Assembly: GCA_044229845.1 (NCBI GenBank)
Contig: JBGASG010000005.1
Span: 320,001 to 384,000 of the forward strand
Direction of reading: 5' to 3'
Source of the DNA: Candidatus Obscuribacteraceae bacterium
Lineage (GTDB): Bacteria > Cyanobacteriota > Vampirovibrionia > Obscuribacterales > Obscuribacteraceae
DNA length: 64,000 bases
This document shows, in pieces, positions 3,269 to 12,593 of the stretch. The translations under genes were made by a program, and so were the position numbers. The notes below the pieces were generated by a model that was given only the letters and a program-made list of their open reading frames with translations, was not told the DNA's origin and did no database searches. Within the stretch, counting starts at the first letter, position 1. The number at the start of each line of letters is the position of its first letter.

Positions 3269-3624
3269 ATTAGTCTTCCGTCTTTGTTGATGCCCTCGTG
3301 GCACCTCAAAACCGCAGTAAGTTGCTGCCTTCACTGTTGTGAAGAGCAAATTTGCGAAATTATGATAGCACCGTTCAGAAACCTAGACTGTGGCACTGCG
3401 TTAAAGTTCCCCTTCATGGGTGTTGCCAGTATGCGCCGCATATCGATTAGCCTCGCTGTTCTGAAACCTGCGCAGCTTGGGCTTTTCGGAATTCTGCCCA
3501 GGACCAAGGCAAGGACCGACCTGGGACTCTGATGCATCTCTTGGCATGCATAGGCTTGCCGACCGGGGGGCGAGCAACTGCCACCATATATGGTATCGAG
3601 GTTCATTGCCGTCAGCGCCTCGCC

Positions 3625-3661
3625 AAAAGAAGAGGGCACGTCGAGTGTTCAACGTGCCCTC
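3625..3661 (-). terminator. Rho-independent terminator of the TROVE-like vWA gene
   Basis: 10-bp stem GAGGGCACGT/ACGTGCCCTC followed on the minus strand by TTCTTTT, about 20 nt after the stop at 3683. Confidence 0.8.
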
Positions 3662-3682
3662 CGGCTTCCTGTTAGTCGTCGA

Positions 3683-5263
3683 TCAACCTGGCGCGCCGGC
3701 CAGTTGACGGTCTTTTCGCACCGGCAGCGGATACGCGAGGATATCCATCAGCAGCTCCAACCGAGTCCCGCCTGCCAGCATTGGCAGCAAGCTGGGCAGA
3801 CTGTAGTAGTCACCGCTAAACGTATAGGTGTCAACCTCGATATTGTTTCGCGTCAGAGCCGCCTCCAGATGGTTGGAGAATTGCCCGCAGTTGAGAATCA
3901 TGACCGTAGGCAGGGTGCCCAGTTCTTGTTGATATTGCAGCATTGCATCAGCCAGGTAGGGCTTGCCGTTTTCACCTTGATCGGTGATCACGATCACTTG
4001 TTCGACGAGCTGCTTCTTGCGGCGCATCATATCTAATGCCACGCCGCACGAGGTGCCGCCGTCGGCCTTGATGCCTTTGAAAGCCTTTTCCCAGTCGGAG
4101 AGTTCGTTGCCTTTCGCTTCGATTGCGTAAGCGAGGGTGTCGAACGCGTAGACGTAGAGATTGGCCTGGCATATTGGGGCTACGATGGCGCAGAGCTGTT
4201 TTCCAATTTCAATTGCTTGTTGCATGGAACCACTCTTATCGACAAAGATTGCGGTCGGACGCTTGATCTTGGCTTTGGATTTGATCTGCTTGTCGCCGAC
4301 CTTCTCCACCTTTTGGGCCATTTCGGCATCGATGTCGGCAGCTTGCAGGGCTTGCCGCGTCTTGAGCGCGGATACGCGCTTATCGCCTTCGGCTTCCTTC
4401 AGTTTTGCTTCGATCATGCGGCGCAGATCTTTGTTGTCCATGGCACCACGCTTCTTGAGTGAAGCAAGGTTGTTGATCACTTCCTGCGGAGTCATGGCGT
4501 CGACCAGTGCCACCAGCAATGCCGGCGTGACTTGCTTGATCGCCGAGACAGCAACCCGATAGGGAATCTTGTTCTGCACGATCAGTCTTGCCTGTTCGCC
4601 TGAGTTGTTGGTCTTAGCCAGTTGCTTCAAGACGTACAGTCGACTGCCTTCCGGCGGATCGTTGTCGAAGAGCACACGCTGTGCGTATTCGCCGGGCTTG
4701 ATGCGCAGCGACGCATAGAGTGTCTTCAACGAGGAACGCGCGTGCAGCACAACATTGTCGAACTGCTCGTGATTCTTCTCGCGTTGATGCAGGTAGTCTT
4801 CGATGGCGGTGCGTACAGATCGCGGGACGGAACCCGCGACACCAGGAATGAACTTGCCGCCTTCTTCATGACCCTTGATCAAACCGATCACGCGCTCTAC
4901 CTGATAAGGAGGCAGTTCGGTGATCATCGCGATGCCGGCGTTACGGTATTCGTCGGAAAACTTTGATGTGGCCATGTACGCCGCAAACAATTGCTTCAAG
5001 TCATGCACGCTGCCGTTCTTGAAGTACCAGGCGGCGAGCGGACCGAAAAAGCGCGGATCGCGTTCGTGCACGTGTTCGAAAAGTGGCATGTGCGGTGCGA
5101 CCGCACGGTGCGGCGTGCGCAGCAGTGCGTTCAGGATCGCCAGACGAAAGTCTTGCTCGCCGGCGTTGCGTGTGCGAGCCATGAGTTCGGTGAAGTTAGG
5201 CGCAGGGGTGGTCGCCGCTTGATTGGCTCGCGCCGGTCGTCGTCCCCCTCGTCGTGTAGTCAT
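3683..5263 (-). CDS. Ro60/TROVE-like protein: helical N-terminal region plus C-terminal vWA domain
   Basis: MIDAS motif FVDKSGSM...GGTS...ITDQGEN; ~330-aa helical basic N-terminus; 526 aa, the size and architecture of Ro/Rsr; neighbouring Y-RNA-like elements. vWA is firm, the TROVE relationship is inferred. Confidence 0.75.
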   Translation of the reverse strand: MTTRRGGRRPARANQAATTPAPNFTELMARTRNAGEQDFRLAILNALLRTPHRAVAPHMPLFEHVHERDPRFFGPLAAWYFKNGSVHDLKQLFAAYMATSKFSDEYRNAGIAMITELPPYQVERVIGLIKGHEEGGKFIPGVAGSVPRSVRTAIEDYLHQREKNHEQFDNVVLHARSSLKTLYASLRIKPGEYAQRVLFDNDPPEGSRLYVLKQLAKTNNSGEQARLIVQNKIPYRVAVSAIKQVTPALLVALVDAMTPQEVINNLASLKKRGAMDNKDLRRMIEAKLKEAEGDKRVSALKTRQALQAADIDAEMAQKVEKVGDKQIKSKAKIKRPTAIFVDKSGSMQQAIEIGKQLCAIVAPICQANLYVYAFDTLAYAIEAKGNELSDWEKAFKGIKADGGTSCGVALDMMRRKKQLVEQVIVITDQGENGKPYLADAMLQYQQELGTLPTVMILNCGQFSNHLEAALTRNNIEVDTYTFSGDYYSLPSLLPMLAGGTRLELLMDILAYPLPVRKDRQLAGAPG

Positions 5264-5400
5264 GGTGTTGTTCCTATACCTTTAATGTTGGTGTCCTTCG
5301 GGATACCGACATCCACTATGTTGCCAACGGCAATGCGGCACCTTTATATGGTGTCCGCCTGGATAAAACGCGCGCCGGGACAGTGGACAGAGAGGTCTGG

Positions 5401-5473
5401 TCCTGTACAAGTCGGGAGAGCTTTTGAGTTACGTTTGCAGACGTGTGTAGGCTCTTCCTGTTGGAGCACAGGG
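5401..5473 (-). ncRNA. Y-RNA-like element Y1 (minimal scaffold, upstream of the TROVE-like gene)
   Basis: CCUGUGC-UCCAACA-GGAA-GAGC-CUACA...GCUC-UC-CCGACU-U-GUACAGG, the same scaffold as Y2-Y7; extended -10 (TGcTAAAGT) at 5482-5490. Confidence 0.7.
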
Positions 5474-5712
5474 TAAGGGTCACTTTAGCACTTGTCCGCA
5501 AAAATCGCCACGATTTTTGGCTGGCTGTTCTACCAGCCGAGACTGGCTCTGGAAGCGCGTCGACGGTGTTTTATACACGTTTTCGCTAATACGATTCGGA
5601 GAATTTACACCCATGCTGGAGCGGGTTAATGTGGTGACATAGCCCAATTGCCGGAACCACTGACGGCAGCGGGCGATGCGCTCCCACCGACCACACCCGC
5701 GAGGCTACCGCC

Positions 5713-6486
5713 ATGATGCTCACCGCTTTGCTTACCAACATCAAAGAAATTGCGAAGAACTCCAAGCCCACGTACTTCACCAAGGATACGTTCTTCGACA
5801 AGCAGTGGGGGCAGAACACAGCTTTCAACAAAACTCTGGACAAGTCTGTGTATGACCATGAGGACTGCGATGAAGATCAAGAGTCTCAACTGCGCGACGA
5901 GATTCTCGTCAGACTGAAAGCCAAGGGCGGTAGCGGCAGTTTTGTCTCCGGCATTGCGGGCGAATCGATTACATTTCTCGAGTCGTTGAAAAATCGCAAG
6001 GATGCGAAGGCCAAACAACAGCGCCTCTGCAACCAGTCGATGAACGAGCTGCTGGCGCTGATTTTCGAAATGCTCAAATCCTACGCTTACGACTACAACC
6101 ATGCCGTCGGTTACGGACCTCTGCACATCGCCATTACCGATCCGCAAATGGTGACCGAGGTGTTGCGCTTCGATCGTCAGCGCAATCCGCTCGAGTCGGT
6201 GACTTACTTCCGTGCGCGGCTCTCGACCTCGTCGCATTCGCTGGTATTGCGTGGGCAAGACGACGGCATTGTGTTTTTCATATTGCCGGTGGCGCGCGCA
6301 CTAGGATTGACCAAGCAAGAAACGAACTATGAGCCGGCGACTTTGCTGCGCATCAAGGCGGAGAACAATCTTGTCCATTGGGAAACCAAGATCGGAACAC
6401 CCTTGACACCGTCTTCGGTAGAAGCGATCTGCATGGCTGTTTTCCAGTGGTTGATTGAAGAAACCAAAGCGCACATCGCCGAATAG
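5713..6486 (+). CDS. Hypothetical protein, paralogue of the next gene
   Basis: Shares Y..xYN.AVG.GP, RA.L.TS.HSL.L and WETK.G.PLT...FQWLIE.T blocks with 6520..7281. Confidence 0.75.
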   Translation: MMLTALLTNIKEIAKNSKPTYFTKDTFFDKQWGQNTAFNKTLDKSVYDHEDCDEDQESQLRDEILVRLKAKGGSGSFVSGIAGESITFLESLKNRKDAKAKQQRLCNQSMNELLALIFEMLKSYAYDYNHAVGYGPLHIAITDPQMVTEVLRFDRQRNPLESVTYFRARLSTSSHSLVLRGQDDGIVFFILPVARALGLTKQETNYEPATLLRIKAENNLVHWETKIGTPLTPSSVEAICMAVFQWLIEETKAHIAE

Positions 6487-6519
6487 TTTTTGATTTTGAT
6501 ACAGGAGGTCGATTCGACC

Positions 6520-7281
6520 ATGCTTAACGGAATGTTCTCAGGCAACAATAAAGAGCGCAATCGCCCGACGCCGAAACCATTTTCGCAAAACAGTCGCTTC
6601 GACTGCAATTGGGGAAAGGCGTCGCCGGTTGAAAAGGCGCCGCCGCGAGCGGTCGAATCTTCGTCTTCGTCCCGGCGCACCGGCATCTATCCGCAAGTGA
6701 TCACGGGTGAGCATCCGATCGCGCTCGATGCCCGCAGCGTATCGCAAAGACTCAAGGAAACACTCGATACCGGAAACAATAGCGACGGGCATCAGCAGAT
6801 CATTTCCGACCTGGCGCCGCGCGACTTGCTGACCATTATGTATGAGCTGCTGAAGGTTTACGCCGTGGAATACAACTCGGCGGTAGGACTGGGTCCATTC
6901 TATTTAGAACTGACCAGACCGCACGAAGTGTCGGGTCCGCTGCGCCTGCAAAAGGATAGCCGTCCCTCCTCGTGGCTCACAAGAATACGAGCGGCACTGG
7001 CGACATCAACTCATTCGCTTTTGCTTTGTGCAGACGAGGGAGTGGTCACCTTCTATGTCATACCTCTGGAGCAGTTGCATGGCAGCAATGCTCTCGGCAA
7101 AGACGCGGTCGAGGGTCACGAACCGCAGACCTATTTACAGTTGAACAAAATGAGAGGCGGCGTTTTCTACTGGGAGACGAAGGCGGGGTTGCCCCTCACC
7201 ATGTCGCGTGTCGATGCCACGTGCCGTGCGCTATTTCAATGGCTCATTGAAAGAACCGCGGACCGGGTCGCTGGAGACTGA
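6520..7281 (+). CDS. Hypothetical protein, paralogue of the previous gene
   Basis: AGGAGG RBS near 6503; same conserved blocks as 5713..6486. Confidence 0.75.
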   Translation: MLNGMFSGNNKERNRPTPKPFSQNSRFDCNWGKASPVEKAPPRAVESSSSSRRTGIYPQVITGEHPIALDARSVSQRLKETLDTGNNSDGHQQIISDLAPRDLLTIMYELLKVYAVEYNSAVGLGPFYLELTRPHEVSGPLRLQKDSRPSSWLTRIRAALATSTHSLLLCADEGVVTFYVIPLEQLHGSNALGKDAVEGHEPQTYLQLNKMRGGVFYWETKAGLPLTMSRVDATCRALFQWLIERTADRVAGD

Positions 7282-7359
7282 GTTTGGGACGAGCACGCGA
7301 CATTACTCGACTGGTCGATCTGCCCCCCAGGTCGGCCAGTTTTATGTTGGAACTCCGAT

Positions 7360-7435
7360 TGGAGTGATCGACGGTAATCGAAACCGTACCTTGTCGGTTC
7401 ACAGCCGACGGCTCTGCCACTTAAGCTACGACCAC
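7360..7435 (-). tRNA. tRNA-His(GUG), atypical
   Basis: Cloverleaf GTGGTCG/CGATCAC, anticodon arm GTCGG-CTGTGAA-CCGAC, T-loop TTCGATT, encoded CCA; U73, no genomic G-1, U53:A61. Confidence 0.85.
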
Positions 7436-7439
7436 AGCT

Positions 7440-7510
7440 CTCGGGGAATTGGATTCGAACCAATATTGCAACGTTCAAAGCGTTGTGACCTACCATTAGT
7501 CGATCCCCGA
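7440..7510 (-). tRNA. tRNA-Gln(UUG)
   Basis: Acceptor TCGGGGA/TCCCCGA (U1:A72, G73), anticodon arm CAACG-CTTTGAA-CGTTG, T-arm ATTGG-TTCGAAT-CCAAT; CCA not encoded. Confidence 0.9.
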
Positions 7511-7680
7511 TCATCTGCTGCGCTCGGGGAGGAAACGATCTGGTCACTCCGGCACCGGCACTGCAATAGATCCCGACGGAACTGACACCAGTTGGTTTAC
7601 TGGTGTCGCGGGGTCTGTTGCTGGTGCTGGAGTCTCTTCATTGAAGTATGTCTCTGAATGTTGAACTGAATTGATTAGGT

Positions 7681-7755
7681 TGGCCGGAGCGGTTGGAATC
7701 GAACCAACTACCTTCTGCTTCCAAGGCAGACATGCCACCAATGCACTACGCCCCG
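7681..7755 (-). tRNA. tRNA-Pro(UGG), G73 discriminator
   Basis: Acceptor CGGGGCG/CGCTCCG, anticodon arm TCTGC-CTTGGAA-GCAGA, T-arm GTTGG-TTCGATT-CCAAC, ends G-CCA. Confidence 0.85.
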
Positions 7756-7861
7756 AGATGTCTCGCTTTTACTGCGGGCGTCTCGGGTTGGGGCGCAATT
7801 GATGTTGGCGTCTATTCATTGGAGAGGGATCGAGTTAATTGGAGAGGGGGGACTACGTTTG

Positions 7862-7993
7862 ATTGCGACCTGCGCAAGTTATGGGAGCTGTTTTTTTGCT
7901 TTGGCGAGGAATCTCTCCTCAGGGTGGATTCGAACCACGGGCTTTCGCCTTTACCAGTTTGTAAGCTCACATTGTTGGAGCGCAGAACGCAAT
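7862..7993 (-). ncRNA. Y-RNA-like element Y2 (T-arm payload)
   Basis: CUGCGC-UCCAACA-AUGU-GAGC-UUACA...GCUC-CC-AUAACU-U-GCGCAG scaffold; payload CUGGUAA, GGC-GAAA-GCC, T-arm GUGG-UUCGAAU-CCAC and a GAGGA/UCCUC hairpin. Confidence 0.75.
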
Positions 7994-7997
7994 AATT

Positions 7998-8047
7998 ATA
8001 GTAGCACACTTTATCGGAAGCGATCAACTTTATAAACCATATATGGT
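7998..8047 (-). promoter_or_regulatory. Promoter of Y2 and tRNA cluster with ACCATATATGGT palindrome
   Basis: TGcTACTAT extended -10 (7998-8006), TTGATC -35 (8022-8027, 18-bp spacer), palindrome at 8036-8047. Confidence 0.55.
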
Positions 8048-8512
8048 GCCTGGTGTTTACACCACCAGTGGTGCCTTGCGTTCGGTTTCCTCTCCAAAGG
8101 GAATGACGGGCACCAGCACTTGGCTGAGCCCGTTGTTGAAGTAATGATCGCAGCTGTGCGCGGTTTTTCTGCCGCTTTCAATGCTTCTCCCATATGTACG
8201 CATATCTGAGTGAAATCGAAAACTCGTATGCGATTGTGGTGGTGTGTGGTTCCAGTGGGGGAGCGGGCCTCGGCAGCATGGCCGGACCCGTGAGAATAAC
8301 TTCGAATTTGTGATATGTGCGGAGTCGGTCACTGACGAAGTTCCCCCTATGTTCACCGCGTCCGGGGTCAATAGCCCTGTTCATCGCATACGCCCGCTCG
8401 GAGATGAATTGGGGATTCATTCCGCACTTATTATTGCCAGCCGCGGAAATGAAGAGCCTTCATTTCCATGATTGGACAATCCCGAGTTGCAATGGGACGT
8501 GGTCCAAAGGTC

Positions 8513-8633
8513 TTGCCTGTACGAGTCGAGAGAGCCACTTTGAACACCTCCATGGCGGAGGTTTTCGGATTCGAACCGATTCCTTGAAAGGGAATTACCA
8601 GATTGTATGCTCTTCCTGTTGGGGTACAGGCGA
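8513..8633 (-). ncRNA. Y-RNA-like element Y3
   Basis: CCUGUAC-CCCAACA-GGAA-GAGC-AUACA...GCUC-UC-UCGACU-C-GUACAGG; payload CUGGUAA, UUCC-CUUUCAA-GGAA, T-arm UCGG-UUCGAAU-CCGA and ACCUCC/GGAGGU. Confidence 0.8.
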
Positions 8634-8640
8634 TACTATT

Positions 8641-8697
8641 AAAGTAACACGCAAAATGCGTGGTGTCAATAGCCGTGCGATACTAAATATGGTGGCA
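8641..8697 (-). promoter_or_regulatory. Sigma70 promoter plus operator of Y3
   Basis: TTGACA (8664-8669), 17 bp, TACTTT (8641-8646) with extended TG; upstream TGCCACCATATTTAGTATCG. Confidence 0.75.
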
Positions 8698-8857
8698 CTA
8701 CTAAAACAAACGGAGATACGGGCAGCGGCTAGCTATGCCGTGCCCGTGATGATCACTGCGGAGAGCTACTCCGACTGGACCAACCTTTTTCTGTCGATAG
8801 TTTATGAAGCCTTGGCGACAAAAACGATCTCCTTTCTTTCTCTCAGTTCGCGTACTT

Positions 8858-8991
8858 TCTGTACAAGTCGAAGGAGCAGAGTTTTGGTGCTCTACCACTG
8901 AGCTATGAGGGCATAAAGCCCCCAGTAGGATTCGAACCTACGCCCACCCGCTTCGAAAGGCGATTGTATGCTCTAAATGTTAGAGTACAGA
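8858..8991 (-). ncRNA. YrlA-like RNA Y4 (permuted tRNA-like domain)
   Basis: Scaffold plus T-arm GUAGG-UUCGAAU-CCUAC, closed acceptor UGGGGGC-UUUAU-GCCCUCA, UA, D-arm GCUC-AGUGGUA-GAGC. Confidence 0.85.
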
Positions 8992-9012
8992 TCGTCCGCG
9001 GACTTTGAGCAA

Positions 9013-9155
9013 TGTATTCCGTATGAGTCGCAAGAGCGTAAACGCGGTCTCGAATTGCTCTTCCTTTGAGCTACACAGGCATGTTGCCCGCGGCAGGTTT
9101 CGAGTCTGCATACTATCGGGGTTGTCGCGTTTGTATGCTCGGGGACTTGAATACA
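9013..9155 (-). ncRNA. YrlA-like RNA Y5 (more divergent)
   Basis: GAGC-AUACA...GCUC..GCGACU scaffold; degenerate T-arm GCAGA-CUCGAAA-CCUGC, closed acceptor CGCGGGC/GCCUGUG, D-arm GCUC-AAAGGAA-GAGC. Confidence 0.7.
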
Positions 9156-9167
9156 GTTACAAGGAAC

Positions 9168-9223
9168 AATGTAGCAGATAAAGTTAGTGGTGTCAATAGT
9201 GGTGCGCACCATAGGTGGTGGCT
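9168..9223 (-). promoter_or_regulatory. Sigma70 promoter plus operator of Y5/Y4
   Basis: TTGACA (9191-9196), 17 bp, TACATT (9168-9173); TGGTGCGCACCA palindrome at 9200-9211. Confidence 0.8.
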
Positions 9224-9367
9224 TATCGAGACCAACGGAGAAACGGGCAACAGCTAGCAAGGCTGAGCCCGTTATGACCATCGCGAACAGCTAATCCGCT
9301 TAGATCACACACTTCTTGTCGGTTGTTGCACCAAGGCGACAATGAAGATCTCCTTACCTTGATGAAT

Positions 9368-9534
9368 TGATGCGGCTGTATGAGTCGATGGAGCGGAGTA
9401 CAAAATCGAATGCTCTACTAATGAGCTACGAAGGAAAGTTCCTTAGGCAGGATTCGCACCTGCTACCGTTCGAGTGAGACAGTTTTTCAAACTGATTGTA
9501 TGTATGCTCAACCTGTTAGGTTACAGTTGCATCA
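9368..9534 (-). ncRNA. YrlA-like RNA Y6
   Basis: Scaffold plus UCGAA/UUCGA stem, T-arm GCAGG-UGCGAAU-CCUGC, closed acceptor (AAGGA/UCCUU), D-arm GCUC-AUUAGUA-GAGC; extra CAGU-UUGAAAA-ACUG hairpin. Confidence 0.85.
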
Positions 9535-9540
9535 GTCATC

Positions 9541-9596
9541 AATGTAGCAAAGACCGATAATGGTGTCAAGGGCGGTGCGCACCATAGATAGTGGCA
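9541..9596 (-). promoter_or_regulatory. Sigma70 promoter plus operator of Y6
   Basis: TTGACA (9564-9569), 17 bp, TACATT (9541-9546); GGTGCGCACC palindrome at 9574-9583. Confidence 0.8.
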
Positions 9597-9737
9597 CGCG
9601 ACAAACCAGCGGAGAGACGGACAGCAGCCTGGGAAGCTGAGCCCGTCGCGATGCTCGCGAACGCCAGGTCGCGAGACAAGCTTGCTTGTTGTCGGTGATA
9701 GCACCAGGGCAACGAAGTTCTCCTTACCTTGATGAAT

Positions 9738-9888
9738 TGATGCGGCTGTAAGAGTCGATTGAGCTTAGATCAACTATTCGCATGCTCTTACCATCTGAGC
9801 TACAAAAGCCGAAGCCTCTGGCAGGAATCGAACCTGCGACCAAGCGGTTACGTGTGTATGCTCTACCTGTTAGATTACAGTTGCATCA
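9738..9888 (-). ncRNA. YrlA-like RNA Y7
   Basis: Scaffold plus T-arm GCAGG-UUCGAUU-CCUGC, closed acceptor CAGAGGC-UUCG-GCUUUUG, D-arm GCUC-AGAUGGUAA-GAGC. Confidence 0.85.
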
Positions 9889-9894
9889 GTCACT

Positions 9895-9950
9895 AATCTA
9901 GCAAAGCCTAGAAGTGGTGTCAAGTATGGTGCGCACCATAGGTGGTGGCA
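9895..9950 (-). promoter_or_regulatory. Sigma70 promoter plus operator of Y7
   Basis: TTGACA (9918-9923), 17 bp, TAGATT (9895-9900); perfect 16-bp palindrome TATGGTGCGCACCATA at 9925-9940. Confidence 0.8.
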
Positions 9951-10340
9951 GTATTTAGTAAAGCGCTGCGCGGGCAGCGACCTGATTGTCGAGCCCGAAA
10001 TATGCATCTACGCCAACGGCGGTGCTGGTTGTATGGACGGAAAATGACGTCTGCATTTGCTGCATCTGTGAGGACAGGGTCGGTCGAGCCGAGCCGCAAT
10101 TCTCACGGCGATAACCGCCGGCTATGACGCCGTGGTTAAACTGCCATTTTCCTAGTGGTGTTCTGATGTCCTTCACGGACCGAACCTCCATCTCCCCTGC
10201 ACTTCGCGAAAACAAAATTCGCGCGCTGCTATACAAACAACCTGGCAGGCGGAAATTCCATCTTAGGGCCGGCTTGAGAATCCTGTCAATAGGATTTTCG
10301 CCTCTGCATACCTTTAATTCGCTGAACCTACGCTGGACCT

Positions 10341-10985
10341 TTATAAATCCAGCTCTCTATTAATAGATAGATCGCCCACCGTTACGGAATAGTTCCGCTT
10401 CTCCCCGGTGAGGATATGGCGCACCAGCACCTCCGCTGCGACAGACACCACCAGGGTGACCAGATTGCGGGCCAGCGGATAGTCGCAGATGTCGATGCCC
10501 ACGTCGCTTGGCACACGATACTTCTCGTTCCAGATGACTTCGCCGTATCCGTCGTTCATTCCGGCATGCAGGCAAGCGATGGCGTTATCGCGGCAATAAT
10601 CGGCGACCAGCCGGCGAGAAGCCGTATTGTCGAAGACATCAACCACCAGGGTTGCCCCCTTCAGAAATTTTGCCGCATTTTTCTCAGTTAATTCCTGCGC
10701 TCGCGCGGTGATTTCAACTCCCACCTCGCGATACAAAAGATTGCGCAACAACTCTGCTTTTTGCCCACCGACATCGTCCAGCGAATAGACCTGGGTACTG
10801 ACATTGTGCTCTTCCACGCGGTCCTTATCGATCACCGTCATGTTCGTCACACCCATGCGCGCCAGGGTTTCGGCAAGATTCGAGCCGAGCGCCCCCGCGC
10901 CGCAAATCAAAATGCCGGCAGCGGCAATTTTGCGCATCGCCTGTTGTCCGCGGAAAATCTGTTCGTGATGAAATCGATGGCTCAT
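10341..10985 (-). CDS. ThiF/E1-like adenylyltransferase
   Basis: ICGAGALGS, IDKDRVEEHNVSTQ, KAE and VVDVFDN motifs; no CxxC zinc motifs; candidate thiol in DICDYP. Confidence 0.9.
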   Translation of the reverse strand: MSHRFHHEQIFRGQQAMRKIAAAGILICGAGALGSNLAETLARMGVTNMTVIDKDRVEEHNVSTQVYSLDDVGGQKAELLRNLLYREVGVEITARAQELTEKNAAKFLKGATLVVDVFDNTASRRLVADYCRDNAIACLHAGMNDGYGEVIWNEKYRVPSDVGIDICDYPLARNLVTLVVSVAAEVLVRHILTGEKRNYSVTVGDLSINRELDL

Positions 10986-11001
10986 CTAATAATTCCTTGC
11001 A

Positions 11002-11442
11002 CTACTCGACAGCAACCAGAACTAGTCCTTTGAATCGCTGCACGCGGGCGACCGCCCGCGGTTTCTTCTCGTATTCATAAATCCATCCGCGCGCGCCGGC
11101 GCTCGTTTCGATCACACATAAAATCGGCTTCCCAAAACAAAAGCACCACGCATCCAAAGTACGGTCGTCGCGCCCGGAAGGACCAGTGAAACCCTCAGGG
11201 TGCGTGTGATAGAAGCCAATCACATCGCCCTCCGCTTCTTCTCGCGCCAGGACACGTTTGCCGTCAAACCGCACTGAGGTCTCCGAGCCCTTTGTGCGCC
11301 AACGCATCTTGGCGTGCCAGACACCATTGAGGCATTCACCCGTCAACACATAGGCAATTTCCTTGCCGCCTGGAAATTCTCCACCATCGGCAAACTTCAC
11401 TGGTCCGGAGGCGGCGGCGTCCTGCTTACCCGAGGTAGTCAT
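11002..11442 (-). CDS. JAB/MPN (Mov34) metallopeptidase
   Basis: Upstream E (KEIAY) and JAMM motif GFYHTHP-x5-S-x2-D. Confidence 0.85.
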   Translation of the reverse strand: MTTSGKQDAAASGPVKFADGGEFPGGKEIAYVLTGECLNGVWHAKMRWRTKGSETSVRFDGKRVLAREEAEGDVIGFYHTHPEGFTGPSGRDDRTLDAWCFCFGKPILCVIETSAGARGWIYEYEKKPRAVARVQRFKGLVLVAVE

Positions 11443-12295
11443 AATAGTTGCCCGCTTCGCGCAATACTCCGACGACGCTGGTCAGGTCGAATTGCTGATC
11501 TTCCCCGCTCAAGCAAACTCCAGCACTTTGCAGTGTCAGGTCGCCGACTGCCACGTTGACCACGTGATCGCGACCGTCCATTTCAAACCGAACGGTTGCG
11601 TACTGTTGATGCTGATCAGTGTAACGAAAACTTTCCAACGTCGCGCCGGCGTGCCGCAATGCATCGCTGATGCGCGTCCGATCGTCCAGCATCGTCTCGG
11701 TCGGATCGTTACGATGCTTATGTAGATACATCATGCGGTAAGCGAGGCGCTCGCTTGGCACCATTCCGCGAGCACGCACTTCACCAGGTTTGATATCGGC
11801 TTCCAACGACCGGCGCAGAGTTCGCGAAACTGCCGGGTCTCGTTTTCGATCTACAGAATCAAACCAGAAGGCTGCGCCATCGAAGCGCGCATGAATGGTA
11901 TCGAAATTGGTGCAGCCCAGAACCAGCTGCACGGGCACCGGACCAGATAACCGCAAGCGTGTGTCAGCTTCGGAATATGCCAGCGCCCACCATGTTTTAT
12001 CTAATTGATCGACGAGCACCAGACGCACGCGAGGAAACAACGCCAGATATTTTGAGACAAGCGAAAGCGGCGCCGTTTCCACGACTTCTGCCACGCCTTC
12101 CTCTACCATGCGCAAGATACAAAATCCTGTTTCTCTCGTGCGCACTTTCATTTCATAGACAATGCCCGCCACGCGAACGCGCACCTTACCGCCTGCAACG
12201 ATCGGAGCAAGAAACGTTGTCTGCGACAACTTCTTTTCTTCCTCTTCCATTTTGGCAATCATCGCCAGCGGATCGGGCCGCTCACGTTCTGTCAT
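11426..12295 (-). CDS. Conserved hypothetical protein of the Ubl operon; candidate E2-like (SAGVCLS)
   Basis: Lies between Ubl and JAB and overlaps the JAB start; C-terminal G-V-C-L resembles the UBC active-site G-x-I-C-L. Function is inferred. Confidence 0.6.
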   Translation of the reverse strand: MTERERPDPLAMIAKMEEEEKKLSQTTFLAPIVAGGKVRVRVAGIVYEMKVRTRETGFCILRMVEEGVAEVVETAPLSLVSKYLALFPRVRLVLVDQLDKTWWALAYSEADTRLRLSGPVPVQLVLGCTNFDTIHARFDGAAFWFDSVDRKRDPAVSRTLRRSLEADIKPGEVRARGMVPSERLAYRMMYLHKHRNDPTETMLDDRTRISDALRHAGATLESFRYTDQHQQYATVRFEMDGRDHVVNVAVGDLTLQSAGVCLSGEDQQFDLTSVVGVLREAGNYYDYLG

Positions 12296-12320
12296 GATGG
12301 AGCACCGCGCACCCGGCTGA

Positions 12321-12593
12321 TTAACCGAATACGGCTTCTGGGCGCACAGTAATGTTGCCATTTTCGTGGCGTTCGATCACCGTGCTGCTCAGATGTTGGG
12401 GCGGTACTTCCATAAAACGTGCCACAGCGGCGCGAATGTCTGCATCGCTGGAACCCGGGGTCAGCTCGAGCAAATCAAGTGCGATGTCGCGGCTGCGACC
12501 TTGAATGCGTACGTGCACGACCGGACCGGTTTGCGTTTGCGGCTCGGTACCAGTGGCGCGGTTGTACAGGTTGTTGATGTCATCGTTTGCCAT
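12321..12593 (-). CDS. Small ubiquitin-like candidate ending in ...PEAVFG
   Basis: 90 aa with beta-beta-alpha-beta-beta pattern and C-terminal Gly; AAGGAGGG RBS; first gene of an operon with JAB and ThiF. Confidence 0.7.
   Translation of the reverse strand: MANDDINNLYNRATGTEPQTQTGPVVHVRIQGRSRDIALDLLELTPGSSDADIRAAVARFMEVPPQHLSSTVIERHENGNITVRPEAVFG

Follow-up and report, generated by a model that had tools for sequence, protein, structure and literature searches.

The region from position 3683 to position 12593 of a 64,000-nucleotide stretch of a Candidatus Obscuribacteraceae genome (contig JBGASG010000005.1, positions 320,001–384,000; this whole stretch is referred to as the window) encodes a divergent Ro60-like protein, a ubiquitin-like (Ubl) protein with candidate conjugation enzymes, and seven small RNAs that share one handle. 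Relatives place the genome among the Obscuribacterales. Read along the minus strand, the order is Ubl, a cysteine-bearing protein (Cys protein), JAB, ThiF, RNA units 1–6, three tRNAs, RNA unit 7, the Ro gene and a terminator; this order and its coordinates, proposed in a first-pass annotation made from the sequence alone, hold on re-reading of the window. The locus is one conserved system and is genuine. As read from the sequences, the one handle carries interchangeable cargo from the translation machinery, which is new here. The assembled system is apparently undescribed, with parts from known families, an assessment that depends on Burroughs and Aravind 2016 not describing it. The explanation we favor, at a probability of roughly 45%, is that RNA baits on Ro catch translation-targeting toxins, which would then be tagged by an E1-E2 relay.

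A divergent Ro60 protein and its putative conjugation cassette

The protein-coding genes of the system, with lengths in amino acids (aa), are the following.

3683–5263, minus strand: divergent Ro60/Rsr-like protein, 526 aa, helical ring and vWA domain with DxSxS (profile, structure match, conserved metal ion-dependent adhesion site, MIDAS)
10341–10985, minus strand: minimal ThiF/E1 adenylating enzyme, 214 aa, single domain (ThiF E 7e-33)
11002–11442, minus strand: JAB/MPN peptidase (Prok-JAB E 2.5e-7, over cut-off)
11426–12295, minus strand: Cys protein, 289 aa, with a helix, two OB-like folds and, at the C terminus, an alpha/beta domain that has GxCL (AlphaFold predicted local distance difference test, pLDDT, 91)
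12321–12593, minus strand: Ubl, 90 aa, C terminus RPEAVFG, terminal Gly conserved

The 526-aa protein had been claimed to be a Ro-like vWA protein, and a Ro-like helical ring followed by a vWA domain is found by profile search, structural model and Foldseek alike. In a search with a 48-sequence profile, Ro60/TROVE proteins were the top four and the seventh of 7 matches, with a best E value of 1.3e-5. When the AlphaFold model (pLDDT 86) was submitted to Foldseek, the top 11 among the matches listed were all Ro60/Rsr proteins, with E values of 3.5e-11 to 1.6e-8. The match extends over the whole chain (TMq 0.52–0.62, ~490–540 columns), from the helical-repeat ring into the vWA domain, and the targets are human, Xenopus, Deinococcus and Thermus-phage Ro60 at 12–16% identity. 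The MIDAS motif DxSxS...T...D is conserved, with D342, S344, S346 and D428 present in 102/102 homologues and T404 in 100/102. Pfam TROVE gave no match at E ≤ 0.1, and the Pfam vWA_Ro60 score of 15.9 bits lies under the cut-off of 27.7. Unlike the known Ro60/Rsr proteins, the protein is thus below the Pfam cut-offs and only 12–16% identical to the solved Ro60s; on its predicted structure it is a divergent Ro60 homologue and not a Pfam member.

The Ubl genes, the Ro gene and the RNAs occur together in Obscuribacterales, oxygenic cyanobacteria, one genome each of Pirellulaceae, Desulfobacterales and KSB1, and phages, which bears out the linkage first suggested from the window. In 22 genome loci, several of them on contigs that end early, the Cys gene is found within 10 kb in 14 and the Ubl gene in 11. 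Strong Ro-family matches are present in 33/301 genomes of the phylum (35 with two weak matches) and 33/107 genomes of the order (43 with ten weak matches), and two other phyla have the family in 3/201 and 1/201 genomes; the distribution is patchy. Among 80 cyanobacteria the Cys protein is present in 31/32 Ro-positive and 0/48 Ro-negative genomes, counts in which related genomes are not independent; the genera g48, g59 and g74 contain both states. A 27-nucleotide (nt) handle pattern is present in 29/32 Ro-positive genomes and 1/48 Ro-negative ones, with one match for the reversed control; since the pattern was derived from the same Ro-positive genomes, this co-occurrence is independent on the negative side only. 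Among 43 viral loci, some of which are duplicates, the cassette is found in 26 (Cys 25, Ubl 23, E1 22 and JAB 20), and one Ro gene is carried by a 595-kb phage record. JAB was found in 0/33 cyanobacterial loci.

It is extremely improbable that the Ro-RNA array and the Ubl operon are independent modules that happen to be neighbors in an island. Gene order does vary, and the Cys-E1 pair is sometimes distant or on another contig, but presence and absence match nearly perfectly, also within g48, g59 and g74, and phages and four bacterial lineages have the Ubl, Ro, Cys, JAB and E1 genes and the RNAs interspersed with one another. The co-occurrence largely refutes this explanation.

A sister viral clade (L098–L112 and L115), whose Ro-like protein has 26–30% identity, is without the Ubl cassette; a conserved 113-aa gene follows in 13 loci, and handle RNAs are still present in L102–L104.

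The Ubl gene at 12321–12593 terminates in EAVFG, in agreement with the FG ending first claimed for it, and the terminal Gly is present in 69/69 homologues. Eight homologues carry a short extension beyond this Gly; JAB was found in 6/8 of those loci, and the contigs of the other 2/8 end before or near the E1 gene. The nearest named Atlas models are the beta-grasp families Prok_Ub, PB1, Ufm1 and ubiquitin (TM 0.45–0.53, all under the naming bar). There was no Pfam or PDB sequence match for the Ubl, and profile searches for a Ubl relative were empty. The E1 enzyme has Cys167 in 62/62 homologues and falls below every NCBIfam cut-off, and the JAB residues H79, H81, S89, D92 and E28 are each present in 29/29 homologues.

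For the Cys protein, the 311-aa start given by the program that listed open reading frames (ORFs) overlaps Ubl, and homologues are ~280–310 aa long. Residues 25–180 match OB folds in model comparison, and OB folds fill the Foldseek and VIA lists. The C-terminal domain runs in the model as a helix, four strands, Cys261 and a helix, and residues 202–286 align with the RWD/UBC-type proteins Ctf19-Mcm21 (Z 5.0, root mean square deviation 3.6, 68 aligned) and FANCL (Z 4.7, root mean square deviation 3.5, 76 aligned), in a tie with unrelated folds; Atlas features for this domain scored 0.81 or less. Cys261 is found in 64/64 homologues and GxCL in 147/149 distant matches, and the family is large, with 1077 representatives at 50% identity. 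Judged by its model, the Cys protein is probably an E2-like carrier. The cassette has two invariant cysteines, Cys167 and Cys261, in series, together with the invariant terminal Gly of the Ubl.

The same genes could be read as a pathway whose product is a modified RNA rather than a tagged protein, with the Ubl acting as a sulfur carrier of the ThiS/Urm1 type or becoming attached to RNA ends in the Ro cavity. The E1 is indeed a short ThiF-type enzyme, JAB peptidases also trim sulfur carriers, and the OB folds and Ro both suggest an RNA ligand. We nevertheless consider this decidedly unlikely, as the E1 lies far under the ThiF/MoeB cut-offs, a second protein with an invariant Cys suits a thioester relay, and the 45 largest ORF clusters of the neighborhoods, judged by sequence starts without profile annotation, include none for a recurrent rhodanese, cysteine desulfurase or PP-loop thiolase.

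One handle with interchangeable cargo

The seven RNA units of the window are listed with their scores against the YrlA family of Rfam and, where available, z values for folding against shuffles.

9744–9882, minus strand: unit 1, handle and tRNA in permuted form (T arm, closed acceptor, D arm), with the opening in the anticodon loop (YrlA 38.3 bits)
9374–9528, minus strand: unit 2, permuted tRNA and an extra anticodon stem-loop (loop UUGAAAA, GAA) (YrlA 31.1 bits)
9017–9158, minus strand: unit 3, permuted tRNA with a degenerate T loop (YrlA 24.0 bits; z -2.7)
8857–8992, minus strand: unit 4, permuted tRNA whose opening lies in the anticodon stem's 5' strand, with an 8-nt anticodon-like loop (YrlA 35.2 bits; z -3.4)
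8515–8631, minus strand: unit 5, handle and D-loop GG, anticodon stem-loop (UUC), T arm and hairpin (read from sequence)
7868–7987, minus strand: unit 6, topology of unit 5 with a GAAA tetraloop hairpin replacing the anticodon arm (z -2.5)
5401–5473, minus strand: unit 7, handle and short hairpin only, directly before the Ro gene (z -3.0)

The seven units share one handle, and its pattern matches all seven, with 2 other matches in the 5.16-Mb genome. The handle is composed of an outer stem of ~8 bp, an internal loop ending in RACUY, an inner stem and then CNUACA. The RNA finder returned 354 distinct RNAs in 2.74 Mb of loci and picked up 6/7 window units; since it also gave 16 matches in the 5.16-Mb genome that lie outside the array, ~8 false ones are expected, and its class labels are rough, many linear units having ended in "T-arm other" or "elbow." In the consensus of 190 RNAs the outer stem was the finder's selection criterion, and only the inner stem and the fixed spacing count as evidence: the end of the inner stem lies 8 nt from RACUY in 189/190 RNAs. 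In an alignment of 32 permuted-type RNAs, 93.8% of cells pair, with compensatory change in 26/30 pairs, whereas 0/500 shuffles reach the observed pairing and slid registers give 31–48%.

The 5' consensus of the handle over the 190 RNAs is YGYRCYC.., and the YrlA 5' motif GNCGAAN0-1G, as given in the accessible text of Chen et al. 2014 (PMC4201824), was by eye absent from the seven window units. The 3' strand ACUUG is common to the Rfam YrlA consensus (RF02553), against which four window units score 24–38 bits with a cut-off of 69. Because ACUUG is common to both, the scores are under the cut-off and GNCGAAN0-1G is not shared, the handle RNAs are, on sequence comparison, relatives of YrlA and not members. 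All of the seven Y-like RNAs claimed at first exist, but only units 1–4 are YrlA-like; units 5 and 6 have another topology, and unit 7 is without a tRNA part.

In units 1–4 the T arm lies 5' of the D arm and a closed acceptor stem sits inside the terminal stem, an arrangement that is backed by covariation and does not apply to units 5–7. Five of the seven units outperform shuffled sequences in folding (z -2.5 to -3.4), which units 1 and 2 do not (z -1.1 and -0.8, unit 2 having been folded with its last 7 nt missing). Unit 6 was detected through its handle by model R1 (E 7e-6), and the position of unit 7, directly before the Ro gene, is the commonest RNA position in relatives. The array contains only tRNA-type and empty units. 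In a near relative, L001, whose Ro protein is 99.6% identical, there are eight units versus seven; the first half is different, unit 5 has UCA for UUC, and the sister of unit 2 has GUU at the anticodon place of its GAA.

The first-pass annotation described the RNAs as interchangeable tRNA mimics, which is right yet too narrow, as mimics of 23S rRNA and anticodon loops with many different identities are also among the cargo. Read from the sequences, the tRNA cargo is opened in the anticodon loop or stem (units 1–4), in the D arm (units 5 and 6) or, in the phage loci L091, L097, L104 and L114, in the variable loop, and linear tRNA cargo with a vestigial NCCA is found in cyanobacteria and phages. 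A 7-nt loop at tRNA spacing is present in 61/120 T-arm RNAs. These 61 loops have U33 in 56 and a purine at position 37 in 58, and they hold 28 anticodons for 18 amino acids and stop; S. Typhimurium YrlA is without an anticodon loop. The anticodon differs in 82 of 107 non-independent pairs with at least 85% identical scaffolds, and U33 differs in none. Across 37 pairs, the difference rate is 0.39 for the anticodon, 0.27 for flanking loop bases and 0.07 for the scaffold, and the neighboring Ro gene differs at 0.24 of its fourfold sites. From these sequence comparisons the anticodon would change at a speed at least neutral, and diversifying selection is suggested.

Stop-reading anticodon loops (CUA, UUA and UCA) occur at L056:8579, L058:12450, L070:13196, L060:7851, L141:3394 and L001:6630; as baits they would suit release-factor or suppressor-type interactions, or may simply reflect drift. 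A cargo class with a conserved CAU anticodon stem-loop (L120:3846-3983, L124:12208-12350, L126:7110-7253 and L129:7804-7946) likely forms a pseudoknot, CUGAG/CUCAG.

The intact anticodon arms, the 7-bp closed acceptor stems of permuted units and the vestigial NCCA of some linear units would also be expected of unusual precursors that yield working spare or suppressor tRNAs, with Ro as a chaperone. In the available text on M. smegmatis, YrlA is cleaved by RNase P and acquires CCA (PMC4201824), and permuted pre-tRNAs are described for algae in Wang et al. (10.1101/312249). This is very improbable here: a change of anticodon on an unchanged scaffold would cause misreading of the code, the acceptor ends of many linear units pair over only 4–5 bp, genuine spare tRNA genes lie next to the units, and the rRNA mimics, handle-only and elbow-only units would be left unexplained.

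Two classes of handle RNA mimic 23S rRNA. A 180-nt class of cyanobacteria is a permuted miniature of 23S helices 67–71 with the handle placed in the helix 69 loop, and a 205-nt class joins the sarcin-ricin loop to helices 43–44 (GTPase centre) in one RNA. Ten helix 69–71 RNAs and five GTPase-centre RNAs match the 23S rRNA of their own genome (E 1e-9 to 1e-3), whereas 0/3980 shuffles fell below 1e-3. A metagenome scan for the handle end and the sarcin-ricin loop gave 99 distinct matches, of which 86 have the 5' handle and 76 of those the GTPase-centre motif; 12/24 of the handle-bearing loci of at least 8 kb hold a Ro, Cys or Ubl gene. In the sarcin-ricin/GTPase-centre class 22/45 pairs covary, at 75% column identity, and a model made from these mimics alone recovers the helix 43–44 region of real 23S rRNA. 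In Ro-positive Obscuribacterales the same model finds four RNAs of full length, which lie at a distance from the cassette. Rfam has no match for either class, and the rRNA-mimic RNAs are new RNA families. In viral contigs the sarcin-ricin pattern gave 1 match, without the handle, and thus did not reveal the class in phages.

Handle-less intergenic RNAs of phages with the 23S GTPase-centre motif lie beside the Ro gene at L113:9920-10200 and L108:7500-7560, with no Rfam match, and the L113 RNA also has a sarcin-ricin-like motif ~250 nt beyond. Second arrays of handle RNAs away from the Ro gene (L279–L282 in G344, G347, G350 and G343) have a variant inner stem and a sarcin-ricin/GTPase-centre unit and stand beside tRNA-Arg. 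Three further recurrent cargo classes are without a tRNA or rRNA match: one at L061:8228, L062:10259, L063:10707, L065:2462, L069:7948 and L143:5009, one at L086:6352, L088:6877 and near 6526 in L113, and one near 1800 in L279–L282. The remaining unexplained cargo classes gave no significant match to 16S or 23S rRNA.

Another possibility is that the RNAs serve translation control or RNA quality control, recruiting factors of the cell itself (elongation factors, uL11, synthetases, tRNA-modifying enzymes, exonucleases or RtcB) to Ro, where the Ubl tag would switch them off or route them for dormancy, stress recovery or phage take-over. Joining the sarcin-ricin loop to the GTPase centre, with covarying helices (22/45 pairs) and high conservation (75% column identity), recreates more than one cleavage loop, namely a surface to which factors bind. 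A Y RNA tethers PNPase to Rsr in Deinococcus (PMC4201824), and the genome here has two rtcB genes. Housekeeping partners would, however, not favor fast anticodon turnover, stop-reading anticodons, arrays that differ between the window and L001, or a distribution as patchy as 33 strong matches in the 107 genomes of the order, and we regard this explanation as unlikely, though a serious rival.

Promoters, repeats and neighboring features

The first-pass annotation gave units 1–6 promoters of their own. A sigma-70-like scan finds such sites before units 1–3 only, that of unit 1 at 9923–9895; those of units 5 and 6, like that of unit 7, are weaker and were read by eye, and unit 4 has none, starting 25 nt after unit 3. 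The scan taken alone is weak because it gave 6 sites versus 5.6 in shuffles; three of the sites sit at equal spacing before repeats. A repeated hairpin (family D2/D5) lies ahead of each promoter (8095–8117, 8706–8763, 9231–9288 and 9605–9662), and a palindrome of the CACCATATATGGTG type lies ahead of the RNA promoters at 8030–8055, 8678–8697, 9205–9222, 9578–9595 and 9932–9949, and also at 3577–3598. The array grew through duplication of hairpin, palindrome, promoter and RNA. The palindrome, which resembles the NrdR box, may be an iterated palindrome of the lineage; its candidacy as a TrcR-like operator of the locus was dropped, the loose pattern having 113 sites genome-wide, a count without shuffle control. 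A fourth TTGACA promoter (10289–10260) lies behind the E1 gene and before ~300 nt of structured, handle-less sequence (window 9951–10289) that is 89% identical in L001 and is covered by an RNA contig in X11.

Contigs of four metatranscriptomes from four studies cover units 1–4 and 6, Ubl and parts of the Ro gene; they indicate presence in RNA libraries only, carry no information on strand, ends or level, and may also stem from DNA. No contig covered the E1 and JAB genes, which has no bearing on their expression. A structured, handle-less stretch separates units 5 and 6 at window 8255–8485; among contigs of the locus, those that hold it are by far the deepest in three RNA runs (478 in X3 and 283 in X9, contig depth being unable to rank genes). 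It is 98% identical in L001, has no Rfam match and is possibly a separate abundant small RNA; a 6S-like identity would be a guess.

The other features of the locus are the following.

3631–3662, minus strand: intrinsic terminator (terminator scan)
5713–7281, plus strand: two paralogous ORFs of unknown family, 257 and 263 aa (30% mutual identity)
7360–7755, minus strand: tRNA-Pro(UGG), tRNA-Gln(UUG) and tRNA-His(GUG), spare copies (the genome has another gene per anticodon)

The intrinsic terminator stands where one had been placed, after the Ro gene. The locus had also been described as co-oriented, which is correct for the minus-strand order but not for the whole, as two plus-strand ORFs (5713–6486 and 6490–7281) lie in tandem between tRNA-His and unit 7. 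The pair is present in 1/22 related loci, has a third homologue on contig C8 (G000:C8:28573-29211) and no Pfam, NCBIfam or PHROG match, and is probably an insertion and not part of the system. PHROGs gave no match for 9 proteins, and small ORFs in the spacers between RNA units show no conserved frame. The absence of rtcB, to which the annotation had drawn attention, is true of the window, yet the genome holds two copies on other contigs.

Proposed function and relation to known systems

By sequence and structure prediction, the divergent Ro60 ring, the RNA family with its one rigid handle, Ubl, E1, the OB-OB-Cys protein and an optional JAB are inherited as a unit, and the handle displays swappable copies of tRNA, which have many anticodons and are opened at the acceptor end, in the anticodon stem or loop, in the variable loop or in the D arm, and in relatives 23S modules. 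Translation-targeting toxins cut or modify the copied sites (anticodon loops, tRNA elbow, sarcin-ricin loop, helices 69–71), and translation factors bind them. In the bait-and-tag explanation Ro would bind the handle and protect and present the cargo, by analogy with Ro60-Y RNA biology. The E1 would adenylate the Ubl Gly, and the Ubl would pass through Cys167 and on to Cys261 in the Cys protein; the OB folds of that protein may dock on the RNA or on Ro, much as a Y RNA tethers PNPase to Rsr in Deinococcus. A protein engaging the bait would then be held beside the loaded E2, tagged and so inactivated, which is the weakest step; it would most plausibly be an anticodon nuclease or an rRNA-cleaving or -modifying toxin. 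The RNA would act as an E3 specificity module, and JAB would trim Ubl precursors and reverse the tag. Cells would counter incoming or self toxins, and phages the abortive-infection nucleases of their hosts.

A role in conflict is favored because of the fast anticodon turnover, the reshuffling at strain level, the patchy spread and the presence in large phages beside tRNA arrays. Since these traits occur together with a Ubl-carrying protein with RNA-binding-type folds, baiting followed by tagging makes the simplest whole. The first-pass interpretation, a stress- or conflict-response ribonucleoprotein system with a putative Ubl cascade, is thereby supported and extended. More tentatively, the system may be an RNA-programmed Ubl ligase, in which Ro and a handle RNA form a modular E3 with a specificity set by an exchangeable RNA mimic of a tRNA or ribosomal site; each genome would keep an editable bait library that records the ribotoxins met, and the system would tag what bites. 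A precedent for the bait is the suggestion of Hughes et al., in the text available (PMC7790460), that YrlA may competitively inhibit an anticodon nuclease.

Several points weigh against baiting and tagging. Housekeeping factors (EF-G, EF-Tu, uL11, RRF and modifying enzymes) bind the mimicked sites as well, and no rRNA mimic is present in the window's own array. The RWD/UBC-type matches of the Cys protein (Z 4.7–5.0) tie with unrelated folds, profile searches with this protein found no E2, and its E2 identity leans on topology and on GxCL, a motif that is like the E2 active site. Relaxed constraint could also explain the anticodon variation, because the 107 and 37 pairs lack independence, the anticodon exceeds fourfold sites by only ~1.6-fold, flanking loop positions vary too (0.27) and one orthologous class keeps CUUAAAA unchanged. 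The sister clade evidently works without the cassette, since 17/43 viral Ro homologues have none within 8 kb. Salmonella YrlA was left uncut by an SOS-induced anticodon nuclease, as stated in the consulted part of PMC7790460.

Some of these points would suit a passive decoy or guard, in which RNAs under the protection of Ro absorb toxins or serve as their substrates, with the Ubl modifying Ro or the ribonucleoprotein for assembly, turnover or an alarm on bait cleavage. The same linkage and anticodon data fit, no E3, protease or effector gene recurs in the neighborhoods, and Ro, in some loci together with handle RNAs, occurs in the sister viral clade where the cassette is absent. A three-enzyme relay in 31/32 Ro-positive genomes would be costly for a sponge, and the OB folds of the Cys protein, being of RNA-binding type, suggest that RNA directs where the Ubl is placed; we consider this explanation rather unlikely, though a serious rival.

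In comparison with known systems, based on the accessible parts of the papers cited, the proposed mechanism resembles Rsr-Y RNA tethering joined to a bacterial Ubl relay that has no E3, such as Bil or Bub, but the system does not belong to YrlA, Bil, Bub or PRTRC. As in Ro60/Rsr loci with YrlA (RF02553), there is a Ro60 fold, RNAs lie within a few kb on the same strand and have a long terminal stem with a bulge, and a locus has several RNAs, including a short hairpin type. Units 1–4 share with YrlA the T arm before the D arm, the closed acceptor stem and ACUUG on the 3' strand. In contrast to YrlA, GNCGAAN0-1G is replaced, many units keep the anticodon loop, linear and several permuted topologies occur on one handle, and 23S rRNA is mimicked; in contrast to Rsr loci, the partner genes are Ubl, E1, E2-like and JAB instead of rtcB and rtcA. 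The linear D-anticodon-T order resembles that of Yrn1 in the Deinococcus RYPER complex (Rsr-Yrn1-PNPase), which by analogy may also be a model for an RNA tether from a Ro ring to an effector with OB/S1-type RNA-binding domains; the proposed effector here is a Ubl-carrying Cys protein, not a nuclease, and the RNA repertoire is large and variable.

With Bil (BilABCD), Bub types I/II and type II CBASS (PMC11601596) and the operon 6d/PRTRC-like systems (PMC1779556), the cassette shares Ubl, E1, E2-like and JAB genes without an E3 and a patchy, conflict-type spread. Unlike in all of these, the E2-like domain is fused to two OB folds and tied to Ro60 and RNAs, in phages and cells. The E1 is a single 214-aa domain, whereas BilD is IAD-AAD-CYS (PMC11601596). 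The E1 and the Cys protein keep their Cys, whereas Bub uses Tyr/Ser oxyesters and BubE, and DUF6527 (BubE) had no match among seven locus proteins. Unlike PRTRC/operon 6d, the ThiF scores 47.2 bits with TIGR03736, whose cut-off is 144.75 bits, and there is no Prok_Ub or Prok-E2 Pfam match. Like the translation-stress tRNA L-arrays of Anabaena (PMC8421152, PMC10272220), whose authors raise a toxin-sponge role, the locus has spare tRNA genes; those arrays consist of ordinary tRNAs under TrcR, and the text available for the two papers mentions neither Rsr nor Y RNA.

The words "TROVE" and "vWA" are absent from the accessible text of the 2006 paper PMC1779556, and the parts consulted of PMC1779556, PMC7159879 and PMC7824862 do not link TROVE to a Ubl cassette. 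Full-text literature searches, with coverage that was without Burroughs and Aravind 2016 and without supplements (for example the YrlA tables of Chen 2014, which may list some cyanobacterial units), found no description of the system.

The system joins Ro60-Y RNA particles with ubiquitin-like conjugation, which were not known to work together in bacteria. It presents Y-like RNAs as a modular display platform with cargo from anticodon loops to folded 23S rRNA pieces, and with cargo that can be swapped on one handle, the role of the tRNA-like domain of bacterial Y RNAs becomes directly testable. The rRNA-mimic RNAs would be new RNA families even if the Ubl has another target. If the RNA does set the target of the tag, proteins would be modified under RNA guidance in a way that is of a new type, and large phages would have a counter-defence that is likewise new.

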